Made by a program: the position numbers and the translations under genes
UHGV virus genome: UHGV-0278542
Length of the DNA: 44,996 bases
Source of the DNA: a virus
Direction: 5' to 3' (one strand)
In this document: in pieces, positions 3,911 through 44,215 of the stretch
Numbering within the stretch: the stretch's first letter is position 1
How the letters are laid out: each line of letters begins with the position of its first letter
Notes under the pieces: generated by a model
What the model saw: only the letters and a program-made list of their open reading frames with translations
The model's database searches: none
Told to the model about the DNA's origin: nothing

Positions 3911-4599
3911 GTCGGTTTATCCGTTGCATTGGAATTTATTGTTGCCCCACCACTTTGTACACCTGAAACAGAATGTTTGTGATTGTTATAATTGTCCCTT
4001 AAATTTTTAACAGTAGATGACTGTGAACTTGCGTTATCCTGAATATCACCGCTAACTTTAAGTAAAGGAGTATTCATGTTGACTCCATCAGGAGCATCAA
4101 TATTTAACGATGAACATTTAATATTTAGTGGGTTAGGCGTGGTTATGTTTATTGCACCATCAGCAAATTCAATGAATTGAGTAGGTGCAATATTTAATAC
4201 CCCACCAAGATAAATTGCATCAGATTTACTGTGTCGCCTTTTGCTTCCAGGTACTGATTCTTTACGATTTTTTCTTACCAGTGATGTGTCTTTGTCACAT
4301 ATCGCAATCAGACCAATATCACCCGCCACAGGGTCCATAATTACAGCGCTGTTTCCTCTTTGCAACCGCCATACGGGAAGGTCATATAAAACCGAGTTGG
4401 AAATCATTTTTCCTGTACGGTCTGTTCTGGTAAGCAAAGGAAGAGCATCAACAACTAAATCTGGTGCCTCACCCCTGACTTCCTGAACTTTTGCTAACTC
4501 AATGAAGAAATATCCAGACATCAGCATCTCAAAAATATATTCCTGAGATTGAGCCTCACTTACCTGAGCAGGCGTTGGAGTAAATAGTTGCTTATCCAT
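3907..4599 (-). CDS. Baseplate spike/assembly protein, putative (start uncertain; track ORF extends to 4692)
   Basis: ORF track 3907-4692; internal ATG at 4599 gives minimal overlap with the upstream gene. Confidence 0.4.
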   Translation of the reverse strand: MDKQLFTPTPAQVSEAQSQEYIFEMLMSGYFFIELAKVQEVRGEAPDLVVDALPLLTRTDRTGKMISNSVLYDLPVWRLQRGNSAVIMDPVAGDIGLIAICDKDTSLVRKNRKESVPGSKRRHSKSDAIYLGGVLNIAPTQFIEFADGAINITTPNPLNIKCSSLNIDAPDGVNMNTPLLKVSGDIQDNASSQSSTVKNLRDNYNNHKHSVSGVQSGGATINSNATDKPT

Positions 4600-5473
4600 T
4601 ATTCTGTTGCGCCTCTGCTCTTTGTTCCGCTGTTCTGGCGGCAATACATATTGAGTGCCATGAACCATTTGGCATCCATGATGATAATTCATGCCGAACG
4701 GAGGTTAACTTATACCTTCCGCTTGCATGTGGTAGTTCTGTTTTGATATCCACATATCTTCCAATGCAAAGGAGAGATGAATATTGCGTCTGAAACATCA
4801 GTCCCCCATTTGAAAATACAGGATATCCAACAAGTCCGTATTCTCTGGATATAAACGGAATTACATCGTCTCTGTTTTTTTCTGAAGGCCAGAACTCTAC
4901 TTTTGTAGGTGGCGTAGCTGACATCGCCAGTCCATAATCTGAACAGACCCTATAAAGTTGCTCAAAAACACTTCCTTCAAAATGCGGACTTCCTGATGTT
5001 GTCATCCCTTTTACATTATTAAACACAGCTTCATAACCTGCACTTGCACAAATGGATGAGATGACATCTTCAACACTTTGCGCCCCCTGCGCTGTAAACG
5101 GGCTTGCTGCCATGTTCTGTAAATCAACATTAGGAGAGGCTGTTATCATCAGACTGCTTTCAGGAGCAGAATTCATGTTTGCTATTGATGAAAGCATCGT
5201 GCCGGAGAAAACAAGAGAATCATCAGCAAATACCTCAACATTTAACTTCTGACCTTCCCCAACAATACCATCAGCCTTCCCTGATATATCAGCAAGTCTT
5301 TCGATTCCTAACCCGTAAAGAGATATATCAGCCTGAGCACCTCCCCGACCGGTAACAAAATTCAGGGATACTGTTGACTTAACATTTCTGATGGAGATTT
5401 TATTGTTTCCATTTTTATCAAATGCTGATGATTCATTCGTGAAGTCAAACCGAAGAATGTGATTTTTATACAA
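4592..5473 (-). CDS. Baseplate/tail protein, putative (start uncertain, possibly TTG at 5473; track ORF extends to 5581)
   Basis: ORF track 4592-5581; long overlap with the upstream 100-aa ORF suggests a later start. Confidence 0.4.
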   Translation of the reverse strand: MYKNHILRFDFTNESSAFDKNGNNKISIRNVKSTVSLNFVTGRGGAQADISLYGLGIERLADISGKADGIVGEGQKLNVEVFADDSLVFSGTMLSSIANMNSAPESSLMITASPNVDLQNMAASPFTAQGAQSVEDVISSICASAGYEAVFNNVKGMTTSGSPHFEGSVFEQLYRVCSDYGLAMSATPPTKVEFWPSEKNRDDVIPFISREYGLVGYPVFSNGGLMFQTQYSSLLCIGRYVDIKTELPHASGRYKLTSVRHELSSWMPNGSWHSICIAARTAEQRAEAQQNNG

Positions 5474-5768
5474 GCTCGTTTTCCTCGATGTAATACAGCA
5501 AGTAACGGCTACCCAAGCCTTCCCATCGCGGGTCCGATTCCCCATCATTATCAATGAAAATAAGGTCTCCCTTAAATCCAAGGTAGGAATATCTTACCAT
5601 CTTATTCCCATGCAGACATGGAACGCCCTGCATAATTGGGACTTCATTAACAGTTAAATCCATGTACATAAAACTCTGTCGCTGAACAAGTTTTATATTA
5701 CATTGCTGACCAGCCAGACTTACCGAAATGGACTGAGATTTGCTGGGAAGAACAGATACTGTAATCAT
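5466..5768 (-). CDS. Small tail protein, hypothetical
   Basis: 100-aa ORF, ATG at 5768 overlapping upstream stop (ATGA). Confidence 0.4.
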   Translation of the reverse strand: MITVSVLPSKSQSISVSLAGQQCNIKLVQRQSFMYMDLTVNEVPIMQGVPCLHGNKMVRYSYLGFKGDLIFIDNDGESDPRWEGLGSRYLLYYIEENELV

Positions 5769-34562: not shown

Positions 34563-35279
<717 letters not shown>

Positions 35280-35429
35280 TGGGCAAGGTGTTCTGGTCGG
35301 CGCATAGCTGGTGAAAAAATTATTTAATGCGGTGTATTGGCTGATTGTAACCCCATGTAACATCTTGCCGTCACCATTTCGGTGGTTAGATTTTTAATAA
35401 AAAAAAACAAATGTATAGCAAGGTTTTTT

Positions 35430-35909
35430 ATGGATAAAATTAATTACCCACCCCTGTTTGAGCCAGGGTTCCATGACATGGATGAAGCTGGATTAAAATC
35501 GTATTGTGTCGATTGCTTTCCTTCATCATCCAGGCGAGGCATGCTATACTGTAATTTTATACAGCTACTCGAATCTATTCGAGAATTATCTGCTCAATAT
35601 GGCTGTTTTACAGAAATATGGGTTGATGGTTCATACACCACGTCTAAACCAGAGCCTGATGATATTGATATTTTGTTGGTATGTGACTATAGCAATATAA
35701 ACTCAATACCTGTCATGCTTCGGGGCCGCGTCGATAATTTGCTTGACCGAAACTACATCAAACAAAACTACAAAATTGATGTCCTACTACTCATGAAGAA
35801 TTTAGATGACCCTAACTATGATTATGAGTACTGGCGTAGTTACTGGCGCGGTTGGTTTGGTTTTGATCGCAGTGAAAACCCGAAAGGGTTAGTGAGGATT
35901 TTTTTATGA
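35430..35909 (+). CDS. Hypothetical protein with a minimal nucleotidyltransferase-like motif, first gene of a two-gene operon in the rexA position
   Basis: ATG at 35430 with AAGG RBS (track ORF starts at 35382); motif EIWVDGSYTTSKPEPDDIDILLV fits hG[GS]-x9-DxD; AT-rich; co-oriented with and downstream of cI. Confidence 0.55.
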   Translation: MDKINYPPLFEPGFHDMDEAGLKSYCVDCFPSSSRRGMLYCNFIQLLESIRELSAQYGCFTEIWVDGSYTTSKPEPDDIDILLVCDYSNINSIPVMLRGRVDNLLDRNYIKQNYKIDVLLLMKNLDDPNYDYEYWRSYWRGWFGFDRSENPKGLVRIFL

Positions 35910-36838
35910 ATGATAAATCAATGTTTAAAAATTGCGATAAACGCATTGATTTCATTCAAAAAGAAGTCGATGCAATGAAGCAAAACAAAACCAGGTCCTT
36001 TGCTGACATGCTTCTTTATCGCTCCATGGATTCTCATCTGAGCGATTTGAAGGCCGAAAAATTAAAGCAAGATAGTCGGCACCCACTTATCGATTTTTTT
36101 GAGCTGCGGCTGAAAGGCTCTGAGGTTGACTTTGGCTCTATTCCTTTAGAGCTGCTTGGGGCTATTTCAACAAATCTTGCAGCGCTAATACAAAGAGCAA
36201 CACACAAAATTGCCTCAGGCAAGGACTCAAAAAAAGTTCCCTACGACGTGAAAAGCTCCTTAAACCTCAGGCTGGCTGATTTATCCCCTGGGTCTACAAA
36301 ATTGGGCGTCACCTTCTCTACAGGAATAGCAGAATTAGTAGAAACAGTACCCAGCAAGGCTGTAAAAGGCATATTCGATTTGTTGTTAAGCGATGACGAC
36401 AACAACTTCATGAATCACGTCGCTGAAATTGGATACAATTCCACTGTAAGCCTTAAGAGAATCGTAGAGGAATGCGATAAACACAACTTAACATTTGATG
36501 CAAGTTGGACCGGTCCATTTAGTAATGGCACCAAGGTGGCAACTATTGACTCCAATAAAATTAAGTACTTGGTGAGTAGACTTACATCAACCATTTCATC
36601 CCCTCCCATTACTGAAACGGTTACAGGCGAACTGGTCGTTCTATCCAAATATGGGAAGCTGGAGCTTGATGTTGGTGGTGAACATTTAAAGGCTTCCTAT
36701 CCGATTGAAATGCTAGATTTAATACAAAAAAAACACAAGGTCGGACAGATTGTTTCTCTTTTAGTGGAGACTACTGAGATTCACAATGATCGCATAGGTC
36801 TGTACCGTAAAAACCATCTTGTTAAATCGGTTCTTTAA
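35906..36838 (+). CDS. Hypothetical protein (310 aa), second gene of the operon in the rexB position
   Basis: ATG at 35906 overlaps the upstream stop (ATGA), GTGAGGA RBS; no recognisable motif beyond a single Rx4H (YRSMDSH). Confidence 0.55.
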   Translation: MNDKSMFKNCDKRIDFIQKEVDAMKQNKTRSFADMLLYRSMDSHLSDLKAEKLKQDSRHPLIDFFELRLKGSEVDFGSIPLELLGAISTNLAALIQRATHKIASGKDSKKVPYDVKSSLNLRLADLSPGSTKLGVTFSTGIAELVETVPSKAVKGIFDLLLSDDDNNFMNHVAEIGYNSTVSLKRIVEECDKHNLTFDASWTGPFSNGTKVATIDSNKIKYLVSRLTSTISSPPITETVTGELVVLSKYGKLELDVGGEHLKASYPIEMLDLIQKKHKVGQIVSLLVETTEIHNDRIGLYRKNHLVKSVL

Positions 36839-37662: not shown

Positions 37663-38133
37663 ATGACAAAATCATGGAGTGTACCTTTTCCTGAATCAGA
37701 AACTGAACATGATGGAATGCCTGTTTTCTGGAGATTCCAGGCGACAGTTGAAGAAGATGGAATCAAAATATTCGCACTTCAATATATAGCTTTTCATCAG
37801 ACAGAGCATTATGCATGGTTGGTTCCTGCGCATTGGATTGTTAATTTTAAACCAGCACCAAATCAGTGGTTACAGGAATGGAAACAAAAGAGAAATAGAT
37901 ATGCAATTAAGAAAGTAGCAAAAAATGCAGAAAGATCTTTTGCATTCCCAACGAAGAAACTTGCCATTGAAAGTTTATTGCGCCGGAAGAAATACCATTT
38001 AATGAGAATCAAACAAGATTTGGCTGTTGCATCAACTCTTGTTGATGGGATGAAGAATATTGATACATCAACACCAGATATTGAATATAACTTTGGACAC
38101 AACCAAGAAACAGAAAATTGGGTATTTTATTAG
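37663..38133 (+). CDS. Hypothetical protein (156 aa) immediately downstream of N (lambda ral/sieB position)
   Basis: ATG at 37663 with GAGGTGAG RBS, 8 nt after the N stop; AT-rich; no match to lambda genes that I recognise. Confidence 0.5.
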   Translation: MTKSWSVPFPESETEHDGMPVFWRFQATVEEDGIKIFALQYIAFHQTEHYAWLVPAHWIVNFKPAPNQWLQEWKQKRNRYAIKKVAKNAERSFAFPTKKLAIESLLRRKKYHLMRIKQDLAVASTLVDGMKNIDTSTPDIEYNFGHNQETENWVFY

Positions 38134-38276
38134 TACAAATAAGCACTGTGTATTCATTCCAACGAGTGAATACACGGAGCAATGTCGCTCGTAACTAAAC
38201 AGGAGCCGACTTGTTCTGATTATTGGAAATCTTCTTTGCCCTCCAGTGTGAGGGCAATTTTTTTAACGGGGGAAAT

Positions 38277-39245
38277 ATGAGTGAAGTAACAGATTTAGTT
38301 GTTATTGAAAAAGCAAATGCAATGACTGTATTTCAGTCTGCCGATCAGATTGAAGAAATCCTTCAAAAGGTTGAACGTGAAGTTATGTCCTTTGTGCCTG
38401 ATATCACAACGGCAAAGGGAAGAAAGGAGATCGCTTCTCTGGCGTATAAAGTTGCGCAGACGAAAACATATCTCGATGGTCTTGGCAAAGACCTTGTTGC
38501 TGAACTGAAGGAAATTCCAAAGCTAATTGATGCTAACCGCAAGACAGTGCGTGATCGCCTTGATGAGCTGAAAGCCAAGGCACGCCAGCCTCTTACTGAT
38601 TATGAGGAAGAACAGGCGCGGATTAAAGCCGAAGAAGAAGCTAAGGCAGCAGCTGAAGCTCTCGCAAAGCAAATTGAGTCTGACCATGAAATAGCGATTT
38701 TGATGGATCGCGAATTTGACCGCCAAAGAGAAGAGGCAAGACTCAAAGCGGAGCAGGAAAAGCGAGAGCATGAAGAACGCTTAAAAAGAGAAGCTGAAGA
38801 GAAAGCCAGAGCTGAAGCCGAAGCAAAGGCAAAAGCCGAAATTGAAGCAGCAGCAAGGCGAGAAGCAGAAGCTAAGGCCGCAGCGGAACGTGCAGAGCGT
38901 GAACGCATTGAAGCCGAGCAACGAGCACAGCGCGAAGCAAAAGAGGCAGCAGAACGAGCTGAAAGAGAAAAGCAGGCAGCAATTGAAGCAGAACGCCGAA
39001 AAGCACAGGAGGAGGCAGAACGAATCCGGCGCGAGGCTGAAGCAAAAGAGCAAGCCAGAATAGCAGAAGAAAAAAGAATCAAGGACGAAGAAGAGCGTAG
39101 AGCAAAGGATAAAGCTCACCGGAGAGAAGTAAATAACAAAATACTTGCTGACCTTATCAAGGTTGGCGCATCAGAAGATGTTGCTAAAAATATCATAATA
39201 GCCATCGCAAAAGGCGAAGTATTCGCAACAAAAATAACCTACTAA
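38277..39245 (+). CDS. Charged coiled-coil protein with a long Glu/Ala/Lys/Arg-rich low-complexity core
   Basis: ATG at 38277 with GGGGAAAT upstream (track ORF from 38223); EAKAKAE-type repeats over about 150 residues. Confidence 0.5.
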   Translation: MSEVTDLVVIEKANAMTVFQSADQIEEILQKVEREVMSFVPDITTAKGRKEIASLAYKVAQTKTYLDGLGKDLVAELKEIPKLIDANRKTVRDRLDELKAKARQPLTDYEEEQARIKAEEEAKAAAEALAKQIESDHEIAILMDREFDRQREEARLKAEQEKREHEERLKREAEEKARAEAEAKAKAEIEAAARREAEAKAAAERAERERIEAEQRAQREAKEAAERAEREKQAAIEAERRKAQEEAERIRREAEAKEQARIAEEKRIKDEEERRAKDKAHRREVNNKILADLIKVGASEDVAKNIIIAIAKGEVFATKITY

Positions 39246-39269: not shown

Positions 39270-39440
39270 ATGATTTACGCAATCGCGGGAGGCGCTCGCA
39301 TGGGTGCCTTCCAACTAAATGAATCTTTACTTGAACGAATCACCCGTAAATTACGTGACGGATGGAAACGCCTTATCGACATACTTAATCAGCCAGGAGT
39401 CCCAAAAAATGGATCAAGCACTTATGGCTATCCAGACTAA
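39270..39440 (+). CDS. cIII: CIII-like protein (56 aa; below the ORF-track size cutoff)
   Basis: Hand translation MIYAIAGGARMGAFQLNESLLERITRKLRDGWKRLIDILNQPGVPKNGSSTYGYPD matches the lambda CIII core; AAGGA RBS. Confidence 0.8.
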   Translation: MIYAIAGGARMGAFQLNESLLERITRKLRDGWKRLIDILNQPGVPKNGSSTYGYPD

Positions 39441-39522
39441 ATTCACTATCGCCACTTTTATTGGCGATGAAAAGATGTTTCGTGAGGCCGTAGAAGCCTA
39501 CAGAAAATGGAGGTCAAAATGA
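39409..39522 (+). CDS. kil: Kil-like small protein (37 aa)
   Basis: MDQALMAIQTKFTIATFIGDEKMFREAVEAYRKWRSK; overlaps the cIII 3' end in another frame, as kil does in lambda. Confidence 0.45.
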   Translation: MDQALMAIQTKFTIATFIGDEKMFREAVEAYRKWRSK

Positions 39523-39707
39523 TTCCGGTAGAACTGGCGAAAACTCCAGAGTTAAGTCGATTAAAAAGAGAATATCACATTGCTGAGGCTCGTTACTGGC
39601 GTAAAGCGGGAGATAAATCAAAGAAACAACTTTGTTTATGGCAGGCGCAAAGAGAGCGCATGAATGAGCGCGAATTTCTTTCCTCCCCATCCGAATTACC
39701 ATTCTGA
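39519..39707 (+). CDS. Hypothetical small protein (62 aa)
   Basis: ATG at 39519 with GGAGG RBS, ATGA overlap with the kil-like ORF. Confidence 0.35.
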   Translation: MIPVELAKTPELSRLKREYHIAEARYWRKAGDKSKKQLCLWQAQRERMNEREFLSSPSELPF

Positions 39708-39715
39708 GGTGAATT

Positions 39716-40396
39716 ATGGGAACTGCGACATTAATACTCGGTGAATCTGGCACCGGAAAATCAACCAGCATGAGAAATATCAATCCAGAGGAAGCAATAC
39801 TTATAAAACCAATAGGCAAGCCGCTTCCATTTAAATCAAAAGACTGGCTGGCATGGGATGCCAGAGCAAAAAAAGGAGCCGTAGTTACCACTGACAAATG
39901 GGACGTAATAGTTGCCGTAATTAAGCGTGCTCACGAATACGGGAAAAGAATCGTTATTGTTGATGACTTCCAGTATGTGATGAGCAATGAGTTTATGCGC
40001 CGCTCAGAAGAAAAGTCGTTTGATAAATTCACTGAGATAGGCCGTCACGCATGGGAGGTCATTAAGGCTGCACAGGATGCGCCTGATGACCTGAGAGTCT
40101 ATTTTCTTGCGCACACCGAAGAAACTCCTATGGGGCGTGTGAAAATGAAGACTATCGGCAAAATGCTGGACGAGAAAATCACTGTCGAAGGCATGTTTAC
40201 TATAGTTCTTCGCACCCTTACCCGTGATGACCAGTTCTTTTTCACCACAAAAAACAACGGTGCAGACACTGTTAAATCCCCAATGGGAATGTTTGACTCC
40301 AATGAGATTGATAACGATCTCTCTTTCGTCGATACCACTATTTGTGATTACTACGGCATCAATAATGATCATCAAATTAAGGAAAACGCCGCATGA
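39716..40396 (+). CDS. Sak4-like RecA-type ATPase, putative
   Basis: Walker A GESGTGKST near the N-terminus, Walker B-like IVIVDDF; about 226 aa; sits where exo/bet would be in lambda. Confidence 0.6.
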   Translation: MGTATLILGESGTGKSTSMRNINPEEAILIKPIGKPLPFKSKDWLAWDARAKKGAVVTTDKWDVIVAVIKRAHEYGKRIVIVDDFQYVMSNEFMRRSEEKSFDKFTEIGRHAWEVIKAAQDAPDDLRVYFLAHTEETPMGRVKMKTIGKMLDEKITVEGMFTIVLRTLTRDDQFFFTTKNNGADTVKSPMGMFDSNEIDNDLSFVDTTICDYYGINNDHQIKENAA

Positions 40397-40980
40397 GCAA
40401 CGTGATTTTTACTTATAACGAAGAAGCAGCACTGACCGCAGGGCAAGGTGGTTTTATTAACGAAACTGGCGCTCATATCATTACCATTACTGAAGCAGAA
40501 CTAAAGCAATCAGAAAAAGGAGCCAAATTTATTGAGTTTTCTGGCGAATCCGACGACGGACGTAAAATCCAATATCTTAGCGTCTGTGTTCAGAAAAATG
40601 ACGGAACGGAAAACAAATTTGGCGCAAATGTCGTTCACGCCATGATGGGGTGTGCCGGGATTGGACAATTAACGCAGCATATGGTTTCCGCCAGTAAATT
40701 TGTTGCTCCTGAGTTTCACGGAAAGAAAATCGGGTTAGTGCTACAGAAAGTATTAACCACAAACAAAAAGACTGGTGCAGACAGTTACCAGATGGAAATA
40801 CGCATCCCGTTTATTGCACAAACAGGTCAAACACTTAAAGAAAAGGCGGAAGGCAAGCAACCAGAAACTATCGCCAACATGGTTGCCAGCCTCAAAGATA
40901 AAGACAATCGCTCTAAAAACGTAAGCCAGAATCATGCAGATGATTATGGTTACAGCCAGAACGATTACCCTCCTTTCTGA
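40393..40980 (+). CDS. Hypothetical protein coupled to the ATPase gene, possibly an ssDNA-binding partner
   Basis: ATGA overlap with the ATPase gene; acidic C-terminus ending DYPPF resembles an SSB-type tail. Confidence 0.4.
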   Translation: MSNVIFTYNEEAALTAGQGGFINETGAHIITITEAELKQSEKGAKFIEFSGESDDGRKIQYLSVCVQKNDGTENKFGANVVHAMMGCAGIGQLTQHMVSASKFVAPEFHGKKIGLVLQKVLTTNKKTGADSYQMEIRIPFIAQTGQTLKEKAEGKQPETIANMVASLKDKDNRSKNVSQNHADDYGYSQNDYPPF

Positions 40981-41003
40981 TTACTGAAAATAAGGCTCCC
41001 ATT

Positions 41004-41300
41004 ATGCCAGCGCCTCTGTATGGTGCGGATGACGCTCGCCGCTGTTCCGGCAATTCCATATCGGAGGTGCTGGAAAATATCAAGAATAATCTCGACGCGT
41101 TTCTTGCTCTGCCACCAGAAACAAAAGAAGAACGGAAGTACCGACGCGATATACAACTCGCAGAAAAACAGGAAAAAGACAGAATAAACGAAACATCAAT
41201 CCGACCATTCCGCAAATTCACATATACCCACTTCCCTGAATATATCGACCCGCGCCTGCGTAATTACCGCTCACGCTATGGCGCTATCAGTAATGACTGA
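41004..41300 (+). CDS. Hypothetical protein (98 aa)
   Basis: ORF with ATG at 41004 in the early-left operon. Confidence 0.4.
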
Positions 41301-41310
41301 GGAATTTACC

Positions 41311-41478
41311 ATGAGAGGACTTGCATACAATCCCGGCATTCTTCCGGCAGAAATGATTATTCACCAACGCGTAAAGCCAATGCCATCGAGAGAAGAATTG
41401 CTTAAGAGAAATAGTTTCGGTTCTGTTAATGACAACAAATATCTGAATGCGATGCGGCGCAAAGGAGGCAACCAGTGA
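41311..41478 (+). CDS. Hypothetical small protein (55 aa)
   Basis: ATG at 41311 with GAGGA RBS; stop overlaps the GTG start of the next gene. Confidence 0.3.
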
Positions 41479-42200
41479 GCGAAATTAACTATAAAGAACT
41501 GCGCGAGGCGGCGAAACAGGCAACGCAAGATGAATGGGTAGCATATATTTTGCCGGGTCATAACGGCATTTATCCTGCGCGCACGTCTGAGGGTAGGCAT
41601 TGCGGATACTTTATTGACTGGCCTAGCGTCTGTCAGGGGCGGGAGAGCATCAACATGAGCATCAGAACCTACGCAGTGAATTGCAATGACGCATGGCTAA
41701 ACACCGAAGGTGATGACATCTCCGGCTCATACGTTAAGTACAAAGACCATCAGGAAGTGGTTGCCGCTCTTGAGGCCAAGTGCGCGGCGCTGGCGGCGGA
41801 GAATGAGCTGGCTCGTAAGGCAGTTCAGGCATTCTGCGATGTTGTTGGCGACAACACCGAGGTTATCGCTGAGGAGGTTGGGCGAGATGGCGTTCTGGTT
41901 ATTTTGGGGGCCATGAAGGCAACAGGAAATATTTCAGCCACCGATGCTTTTCTGGCTGAAATTCGTGCGGAAGCACGCAACGAGGGGATTAACTATACCG
42001 CCAGCCGTCTTGCTGCTGCGTTCAATCACGGATTTATCAATAAATCTTTGCGTGAAGTTTTCGACGTTACACGCATGATTTTGTCAGCGAAAGAAGAGTT
42101 GGCTAATGAACCGCATCCGATTGATGGCCTGTCCGGTGAATATGCGGAGAAATCCCTTGAAGAATGGGCGGAACAGATTCGCAAAGGAGGCAAGCAGTGA
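41475..42200 (+). CDS. Ea22-like family protein (GTG start)
   Basis: AAGGAGG RBS; N-terminus [21 protein letters not shown] of the type seen in Ea22-like prophage proteins. Confidence 0.5.
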
Positions 42201-42496
42201 GTGTATATCTTATTGATAAACGTCGACGTGGGCAACAAATACCACCTGTAGGAATTCCGAATCACACATGGTTTTGCGTACTTGATATCGATGGTATGGA
42301 TGCGTTGGTTGACACTCGTCATTACTGCGATACCGCAACAGCTACTCCGGCGAAAGCAAAGAAAATGGCTGCTCTGATAGAAAACTGGACTCCACCTGAT
42401 GGTTGGTGCAATGGGAATGATCGAGATTGGCATGAAAAAATGAAGGGCTATATCTGCGATTTCTTACGTAAATGCAACGGATTCAGGGTGATGTGA
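42197..42496 (+). CDS. Hypothetical protein (about 99 aa, GTG start inferred)
   Basis: AAGGAGG 6 nt upstream of GTG at 42197, overlapping the upstream stop; track ORF 42164-42496. Confidence 0.35.
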   Translation: MSVYLIDKRRRGQQIPPVGIPNHTWFCVLDIDGMDALVDTRHYCDTATATPAKAKKMAALIENWTPPDGWCNGNDRDWHEKMKGYICDFLRKCNGFRVM

Positions 42497-42497
42497 C

Positions 42498-43055
42498 ATG
42501 AACAAGATTGACTATCAGGCACTGCGTGAGGCGGCAGAGAAGGCAACGTGGGGAGACTGGGACTCATATAAACCACACCGTGGCGCACGTGGTTATGAGG
42601 TCCGACTAAGTAGTCAGGCCATTGCGCAACACGTTCTGAAAAACAACGCTGAATTTATTGCTGCCTTTAATCCAAAGATTGCTTTGGCACTACTGGATGA
42701 ACGGGAAAGGAACCAGCAATACATCAAATCCCGCGACCAGGAGAACGAGGATATTGCACTAACGGTAGGGAAGTTGCGCGTTGAGCTGGAAGCAGCAAAA
42801 TCAAAACTCAACGAGCAGCGTGAGTATTACGAAGGTGTTATCTCTGATGGGAGTAAGCGCATAGCAGAGTTAGAAAGTGGTTCTCAGGCACAAAAGTTAG
42901 TTGAAGCAATCATTGTTGCGATAGAAAACGAACAGGAACGTCTTTTTGATGAAGATTACCTAATGGATTCGAAAGAATGCATTGACGTAATTCGTGAAGA
43001 AGTAAAGCGATGGGATGATTCCCGCGCCGCTGGCATTGGCATCAAAGGAGAGTGA
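42498..43055 (+). CDS. Ea22-like family protein (paralogous N-terminus)
   Basis: N-terminus MNKIDYQALREAAEKATWGDW parallels that of the gene at 41475. Confidence 0.5.
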   Translation: MNKIDYQALREAAEKATWGDWDSYKPHRGARGYEVRLSSQAIAQHVLKNNAEFIAAFNPKIALALLDERERNQQYIKSRDQENEDIALTVGKLRVELEAAKSKLNEQREYYEGVISDGSKRIAELESGSQAQKLVEAIIVAIENEQERLFDEDYLMDSKECIDVIREEVKRWDDSRAAGIGIKGE

Positions 43056-43056
43056 T

Positions 43057-43320
43057 ATGGCAACTTTGACAAAAAAAGAACAAGCATGGTTGAGCGAATT
43101 ACAGGACGTTCTTGATCGCTGCCCATCACCGAAAAAAATTGGTTTTTACACCATTGGCGATAAAAGCATTTACCTGTATGACCTGCGCCGCATGGATGAA
43201 ATCATGGAGGCTCTTGATAATCGTTCGTCAATGGATTGGTGTGTTGCTGTTCATGATATGAATGCCGGATTTGATGAAAAGATTTTATTCCCCTCATCAG
43301 TTGAAAGTACAGCAGGATAA
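43057..43320 (+). CDS. Hypothetical protein (87 aa)
   Basis: ATG at 43057 with GGAG RBS, 1 nt after the upstream stop. Confidence 0.4.
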   Translation: MATLTKKEQAWLSELQDVLDRCPSPKKIGFYTIGDKSIYLYDLRRMDEIMEALDNRSSMDWCVAVHDMNAGFDEKILFPSSVESTAG

Positions 43321-43330
43321 GGACTAACAC

Positions 43331-44215
43331 ATGACCACTATTACCAAAGAGCGACTGCTGACAATCAGGCAGTGGCGCGAAACATACGGACCTGGTAGCA
43401 ACGTTGTACTGCCAGCAGAAGAAGCGGAAGAACTGGCACGAATTGCTCTGGCATCGCTGGAGCAGAATGTACTATCGGGCAACTCTCCGCTTATTCCTGG
43501 TGAAGTGTTGTCCGCAATCCGGGAGGTTGCCAGGATTCGTGCCGATTTCGATGATTTTGACGGTGACAGGCGAGGTATCGGTGATTGTCTGGATGAGGCT
43601 GAGCAAGAGCTTATCGTTACCATTAACAAATATGCCAGTCAGTTGGCAGCAGAACCGATAGCGACTAATGACGTTCGAGAGCAAACAGCCGTTCCGCCAA
43701 TACAGGCTGATGTCGCGCAAGCAATTGAAAATCTCAAGCAGAAGTTAGTGGAATGCAATCGCTATAACTACTGCGCAGATGCAGTGAAGAACGTAGAGGA
43801 TGCCTGCCGTGCTGTTAGCTATAGCCAAGCCGACAATCAGCCAGCATCTGGCAACCAGGCTGCCGAATCCAATCGCGGTAATGAGTGGACTGGCAATCCT
43901 GATATTGATAACGCCATCATCATGCTCGACCGCATAGATACGCTGGAAAATTGCGATGATGACCGTATTGAGGCTGTTAAGGCTGTTTTGCGTAGACTGG
44001 CTGGCAACTCTCCGGTAACTCCGGATAGTTGGATAAGCTGTAGTGAGCGAATGCCCGCTCAAGATGATTGGATTTTAATTTATTCAAAGCACGGCGAGTA
44101 TATGGCAGGACAGGTACAAGGGGAATACGTGGAGTTGAGCGACGGCACTTTATCGTGGTTAGGGAACGCCTTGTACTGGATGCCGCTACCAGAACCGCCG
44201 CAGGAGGCGAAATGA
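43331..44215 (+). CDS. Hypothetical protein with DUF551-like C-terminus
   Basis: C-terminal DDWILIYSKHGEYMAGQ...WLGNALYWMPLPEPP resembles the DUF551 region common in prophage early-left proteins. Confidence 0.45.
   Translation: MTTITKERLLTIRQWRETYGPGSNVVLPAEEAEELARIALASLEQNVLSGNSPLIPGEVLSAIREVARIRADFDDFDGDRRGIGDCLDEAEQELIVTINKYASQLAAEPIATNDVREQTAVPPIQADVAQAIENLKQKLVECNRYNYCADAVKNVEDACRAVSYSQADNQPASGNQAAESNRGNEWTGNPDIDNAIIMLDRIDTLENCDDDRIEAVKAVLRRLAGNSPVTPDSWISCSERMPAQDDWILIYSKHGEYMAGQVQGEYVELSDGTLSWLGNALYWMPLPEPPQEAK

Follow-up and report, generated by a model that had tools for sequence, protein, structure and literature searches.

[quoted passage not shown] The central gene pair is the Sak4-SSB pair of phage HK620 in near-identical copies, and the biochemistry of the HK620 proteins was already published in 2018 (Hutinet et al., Front Microbiol 9:743, PMC5928155). 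The initial annotation had described a 226-aa Walker-A ATPase coupled through ATGA to a 195-aa protein, and both open reading frames (ORFs) as well as the overlap were found as claimed:

39716-40396, + strand: sak4 ORF, 226 aa, beginning MGTATLILGESGTGKST
39740-39766, + strand: Walker A (P-loop) motif GESGTGKST, Sak4 residues 9-17, read directly from the sequence
39950-39967, + strand: Walker B motif IVIVDD, Sak4 residues 79-84
40393-40396, + strand: ATGA overlap of the sak4 stop (TGA, 40394-40396) and the ssb start (ATG, 40393-40395)
40393-40980, + strand: ssb ORF (HkaK, SSB-HK620 or "SSB-2"), 195 aa, ending ...HADDYGYSQNDYPPF
40960-40977, + strand: C-terminal tip NDYPPF, SSB residues 190-195, the Sak4-recruiting motif; SSB-HK620 delta-6 lacks exactly these six residues

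Since both ORFs have strong PHROG matches (9e-108 for sak4 and 2e-66 for ssb) and thousands of homologs, they are real genes and not chance reading frames. Shine-Dalgarno-like sequences precede both starts (GAGGTG ahead of 39716, AAGGAAA ahead of 40393). What was observed directly on the pair is its gene identity, its motifs and folds, its synteny and the conserved tip.

The gene pair and its HK620 counterpart

On its sequence, the sak4 product is a predicted 226-aa, RecA-core-only, ATP-dependent single-strand annealing protein. Its Sak4-like identity, proposed in the initial annotation, is borne out by a match to phrog_2872 "Sak4-like ssDNA annealing protein" (9.4e-108, residues 1-220, 219-position profile), by a Pfam AAA_24 match of 30.4 bits, just over the gathering cutoff of 27, and by identity to HK620 HkaL at 221 of 226 residues (98%). 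The Walker A residues G9, S11, G12, G14 and K15 and the Walker B residues D83 and D84 are invariant across 42 Sak4 family members, and Walker B forms a beta strand (E79-82) in the structure model. The protein has the RecA/Rad51 core fold with neither N- nor C-terminal accessory domains. About 80% of sak4 genes have an adjoining cognate ssb (PMC5928155), here the ATGA-coupled ssb.

Protein identities to the HK620 reference genome (AF335538) were determined by BLASTP. In addition to Sak4, the SSB is identical to HkaK at 194 of 195 residues (99%) and the hkaM-like protein to HkaM at 61 of 62, and Abc2 shares 71 of 98 residues (72%) with its HK620 namesake. The five substitutions in Sak4 (window residue first: D43E, A55T, T207A, I209V and D218V) lie outside the Walker motifs and the sole substitution in SSB (E153V) outside the tip; these six changes probably leave function unchanged. 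HK620 hkaL (5065-5745, 681 nt) and hkaK (4481-5068, 588 nt) match the window genes in length and in the 4-nt ATGA overlap, and share with them the NDYPPF tip. The order kil, hkaM, sak4, ssb, abc2 is common to both phages, and positions 39321-41459, from kil to abc2, form one block shared with HK620 at 94.8% nucleotide identity, while the flanks share short patches only and the rest of the window phage is a different mosaic. Within this single blastn block Abc2 has diverged far more than Sak4 and SSB.

From its sequence and a structure model, the ssb product is predicted to be an ssDNA-binding protein of 195 aa that combines an OB fold with a disordered tail at the C-terminus. The suggestion that the second protein is an ssDNA-binding partner agrees with its near-identity to HkaK, with its match to phrog_743 "single strand DNA binding protein" (1.8e-66) and with the OB-fold core seen in the model, in which residues 177-195 have a pLDDT below 50. 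The model suggests an OB fold for HkaK-type SSB, with PrgE, an atypical SSB from a plasmid, as the nearest match; the OB-fold status of HkaK is disputed between PMC5928155 and PMC12315714. Even at E<=10, Pfam-A assigned the SSB to no family, the canonical bacterial SSB family (PF00436) included, NCBIfam gave none, and a phmmer search against PDB sequences returned nothing relevant. Likewise, HHpred found no direct match of HkaK to E. coli SSB according to the authors (PMC5928155). The protein is predicted to work like SSB, yet it stands outside the canonical SSB (PF00436) sequence family. Many of its 147 homologs are named DUF669 by NCBI, a label that derives only from source names, since there was no Pfam DUF669 match.

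The SSB-like acidic C-terminal tip noticed earlier is present as NDYPPF and its end is conserved in the family: among full-length SSB-2 family members the terminal F occurs in 107 of 117 and the penultimate P in 65 of 117. DDDIPF, the tip of E. coli SSB itself, closes three members exactly, and five distant phages have acidic tips of the form ...[LMI]PF. The pairing reaches well beyond enterobacteria: an SSB-2 homolog or an annotated SSB lies downstream of sak4 in five of the six distant phages sampled. In Acinetobacter phage PhabP_R1, Pseudomonas phage MR15, Moraxella phage Mcat8 and Aeromonas phage 2_D05, the SSB-2 profile recognises the gene that immediately follows sak4 (E 8e-17 to 9e-61), the proteins having the tips DDDLPF, DDIPFD, DDDMPF and DSDLPF, respectively, and in Roseburia phage Jekyll an annotated SSB right after sak4 ends in DEELPFN. 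The SSB-2 profile found no homolog in the post-sak4 position of crAss001. Two genes downstream of the Sak4-like ATPase of crAss001, gp82 (L007 3473-3847, 124 aa) ends in ...EVADEMPFKD, an acidic ...PF motif resembling an SSB tip in a protein that does not match the SSB-2 profile.

Genomic setting and distribution

The + strand of the window carries the leftward early operon, in which the pair lies downstream of N, cIII and kil and upstream of abc2 and of Ead/Ea22 genes. The following neighbours were assigned:

37277, + strand: N (Pfam N36, 2e-26)
39270, + strand: cIII (Lambda_CIII, 9e-25)
about 39412-39522, + strand: kil (Lambda_Kil, 9e-21)
39519-39707, + strand: hkaM-like gene, 62 aa from the HK620-equivalent start (phrog_1723, 2e-33; the longest ORF starts at 39507)
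41004-41300, + strand: abc2, last gene of the Rec module, predicted anti-RecBCD protein (RecBCD modifier; Anti-RecBCD_p2, 3e-42; phrog_656, 2e-48)

The pair thus occupies the pL operon slot in which lambda carries gam-bet-exo, as had been proposed, and none of the ORFs scanned between 37277 and 44756 matched the Gam, Bet (Rad52-like) or Exo families. The hkaM-like gene is the first in the HK620-type Rec module; a further ATGA overlap joins its HK620-equivalent ATG (39519) to the stop of kil (39520-39522), so that kil, hkaM, sak4 and ssb follow one another in close succession. PHROGs labels this gene "recombinase" (phrog_1723), whereas it is described as an orphan of unknown function in PMC5928155.

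Several neighbouring genes deserve mention in their own right. The 156-aa ORF that directly follows N (37663-38133, +) hits a PHROG family of unknown function, phrog_1636 (3e-111). Between this ORF and cIII lies another of 340 aa (38223-39245, +), which has a long E/A/K/R-rich, apparently coiled-coil central region and matches only phrog_1376 and phrog_21365 (unknown function); neither ORF has a Pfam or PADLOC match. Downstream of the Rec module, positions 41475-42200 and 42498-43055 (+) encode two paralogs of the Ead/Ea22 family, 42164-42496 (+) a DUF7739 protein and 43331-44215 (+) a protein of 294 aa with a DUF551 domain at its C-terminus; all are typical genes of the lambdoid "ea" region (41475-44215). 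Two overlapping ORFs (35382-36838, +) fill the lambda rexAB slot between cI (34566-35279) and N: the first (175 aa) matches Pfam DUF6932 (2e-24) and PADLOC PDC-M63A (2e-41), and the second (310 aa) has no Pfam match but matches PDC-M63B (8e-45). These matches suggest PDC-M63, a candidate defence system of two genes carried by a prophage.

No single phage record spans more than 35% of positions 20001-44996, and it is this low coverage together with the HK620 block that marks the window as a mosaic lambdoid phage or prophage with an HK620-type Rec cassette. Matches to the module region 39400-41400 occur in 344 phage records, of which roughly a hundred belong to Stx-converting phages, and the core (39716-40980) matches 195 of 5,426 complete E. 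coli genomes (~3.6%), always on the chromosome. The closest protein clusters comprise 1,036 and 1,407 sequences. In PGAP annotation the pair appears as "ATP-binding protein" and "hypothetical protein" or "DUF669 domain-containing protein", and phage records use "DNA binding ATPase" or "hypothetical protein". The main value of the present finding therefore lies in annotation: generic labels cover a biochemically characterised recombination pair, and public annotation is behind the literature. Furthermore, the pair is useful as an alternative recombineering system, and it raises no new biological question.

Proposed loading of Sak4 by the SSB tip and competing readings

The biochemical steps were established by others on proteins 98-99% identical to those of the window, and by analogy they would apply to this allele and phage. 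HK620 Sak4, a monomer in solution, requires ATP both to bind ssDNA and to anneal it (PMC5928155). HkaK elutes as a tetramer, has an ssDNA affinity about 4-fold below that of E. coli SSB, blocks RecA-mediated annealing and does not anneal by itself, and SSB-HK620 stimulates annealing by Sak4 in vitro (PMC5928155). In recombineering, Sak4 reached 15-fold over background and about 210-fold when ssb was co-expressed; hkaM and abc2 had no added effect, so that sak4 with ssb equalled the full module (PMC5928155). Deletion of NDYPPF lowered recombineering about 10-fold, turned the stimulation of annealing in vitro into inhibition and abolished the ATP-dependent Sak4/SSB/ssDNA supershift (PMC5928155). 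Loading of Sak4 onto SSB-coated ssDNA depends on the six residues, and contact between the two proteins was detected on ssDNA only, none being seen in solution (PMC5928155).

We therefore favour the following sequence of events for the window phage. The module would be expressed from pL under N antitermination, with the ATGA overlap coupling translation of sak4 and ssb. SSB, an OB-fold protein and a tetramer in HK620, would coat phage or lagging-strand ssDNA and expose its flexible acidic tail, whose terminal NDYPPF would recruit ATP-bound monomeric Sak4 onto the SSB-ssDNA complex, and Sak4 would then anneal the coated strand to a complementary single strand. Abc2 would retune host RecBCD, which would then process phage DNA ends to the advantage of the phage instead of destroying them. 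As a whole, the module probably serves phage recombination and recombination-dependent replication.

The initial annotation had also proposed that the tip recruits host factors. The recruiting role stands (PMC5928155), but the client demonstrated is phage Sak4 and not a host protein. It is possible, albeit unlikely, that the tip mainly mimics the C-terminus of host SSB (DDDIPF in E. coli) and recruits or titrates RecO, PriA, ExoI or Pol III chi, instead of or besides loading Sak4. NDYPPF does follow the canonical pattern of acidic residues and a terminal P-F, the host sequence itself is found at the end of three members of the family, and DDDLPF or DDDMPF at that of distant homologs; in addition, SSB-HK620 has a weak stimulatory effect on strand exchange by RecA in vitro, where it partly replaces E. 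coli SSB (PMC5928155). Nevertheless, no host partner of the tip has been reported, the interaction with Sak4 on ssDNA is the only tip-dependent one demonstrated, and recombineering by Sak4 and SSB is equal in RecA+ and recA strains (PMC5928155), which argues against recruitment of host factors. We consider it somewhat more doubtful still that the SSB-2 tip is a true mimic of host SSB with two uses, loading Sak4 and engaging or competing for the E. coli SSB interactome (ExoI, RecO, PriA, chi). Such a dual-use tip would direct host repair and replication factors to phage ssDNA, and it might be sensed by host defences.

Another reading makes Sak4 a recombinase and not an annealase. The RecA/RAD51 core fold, the filaments of staphylococcal phage 52A Sak4 in the 8RC5 complex and the crossover recombination measured with Sak4 and SSB in a conjugation assay (20-fold above background) would all suit a RecA/Rad51-like, filament-forming strand-exchange recombinase with SSB as its mediator. 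However, HK620 Sak4 yielded neither joint molecules nor strand-exchange products in vitro with either SSB and had no effect on RecA (PMC5928155), it is a monomer in solution, its activity in vivo is 500-fold below that of RecA, and its 226 residues, core only, lack the C-terminal secondary DNA-binding domain of RecA; strand exchange is thus an improbable role. A chiefly accessory role in replication, as a replicative SSB and a fork-associated ATPase, is the least probable of all: Sak4-like ATPase genes adjoin helicase or primase genes in crAss-like phages and in Roseburia phage Jekyll, but the window pair lies in the Rec-module slot of the pL operon beside abc2 and far from O and P, and recombineering activity was directly demonstrated for the HK620 proteins. 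Loading of an annealing Sak4 by the SSB tip remains our preferred reading.

Comparison with known systems

The Sak4 protein of Staphylococcus phage 52A (PDB 8RC5; Nat Commun 2025, PMC11846896) has only 14% sequence identity to the window protein. The 52A protein is the target of the SaPI2 Stl2 repressor, whereas no such interaction with a parasite or a defence is known for enterobacterial Sak4. Within the RecA/Rad51 superfamily, Sak4 differs from RAD51D, RAD51C, XRCC3 and archaeal RadB in lacking accessory domains at either end, and with HK620 Sak4 neither strand exchange nor an effect on RecA was seen. The window SSB was compared with PrgE of pCF10 (PDB 8S4S; PMC11137577) and with the OB folds of canonical SSB, PriB and RPA; it has no detectable sequence similarity to canonical SSB, and the HK620 protein binds ssDNA about 4-fold more weakly than E. 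coli SSB does.

At the level of the module, the HK620-type genes resemble lambda Red (Gam-Bet-Exo) and the arf-erf-abc1-abc2 genes of P22 in their pL operon slot and overall task, and abc2 is common to the window module and P22. In contrast to both systems, the HK620-type module contains no exonuclease and supplies its own SSB, and its annealase is an ATP-dependent protein of the RecA fold, whereas lambda Red and P22 use a Rad52-like ring, Bet or Erf.
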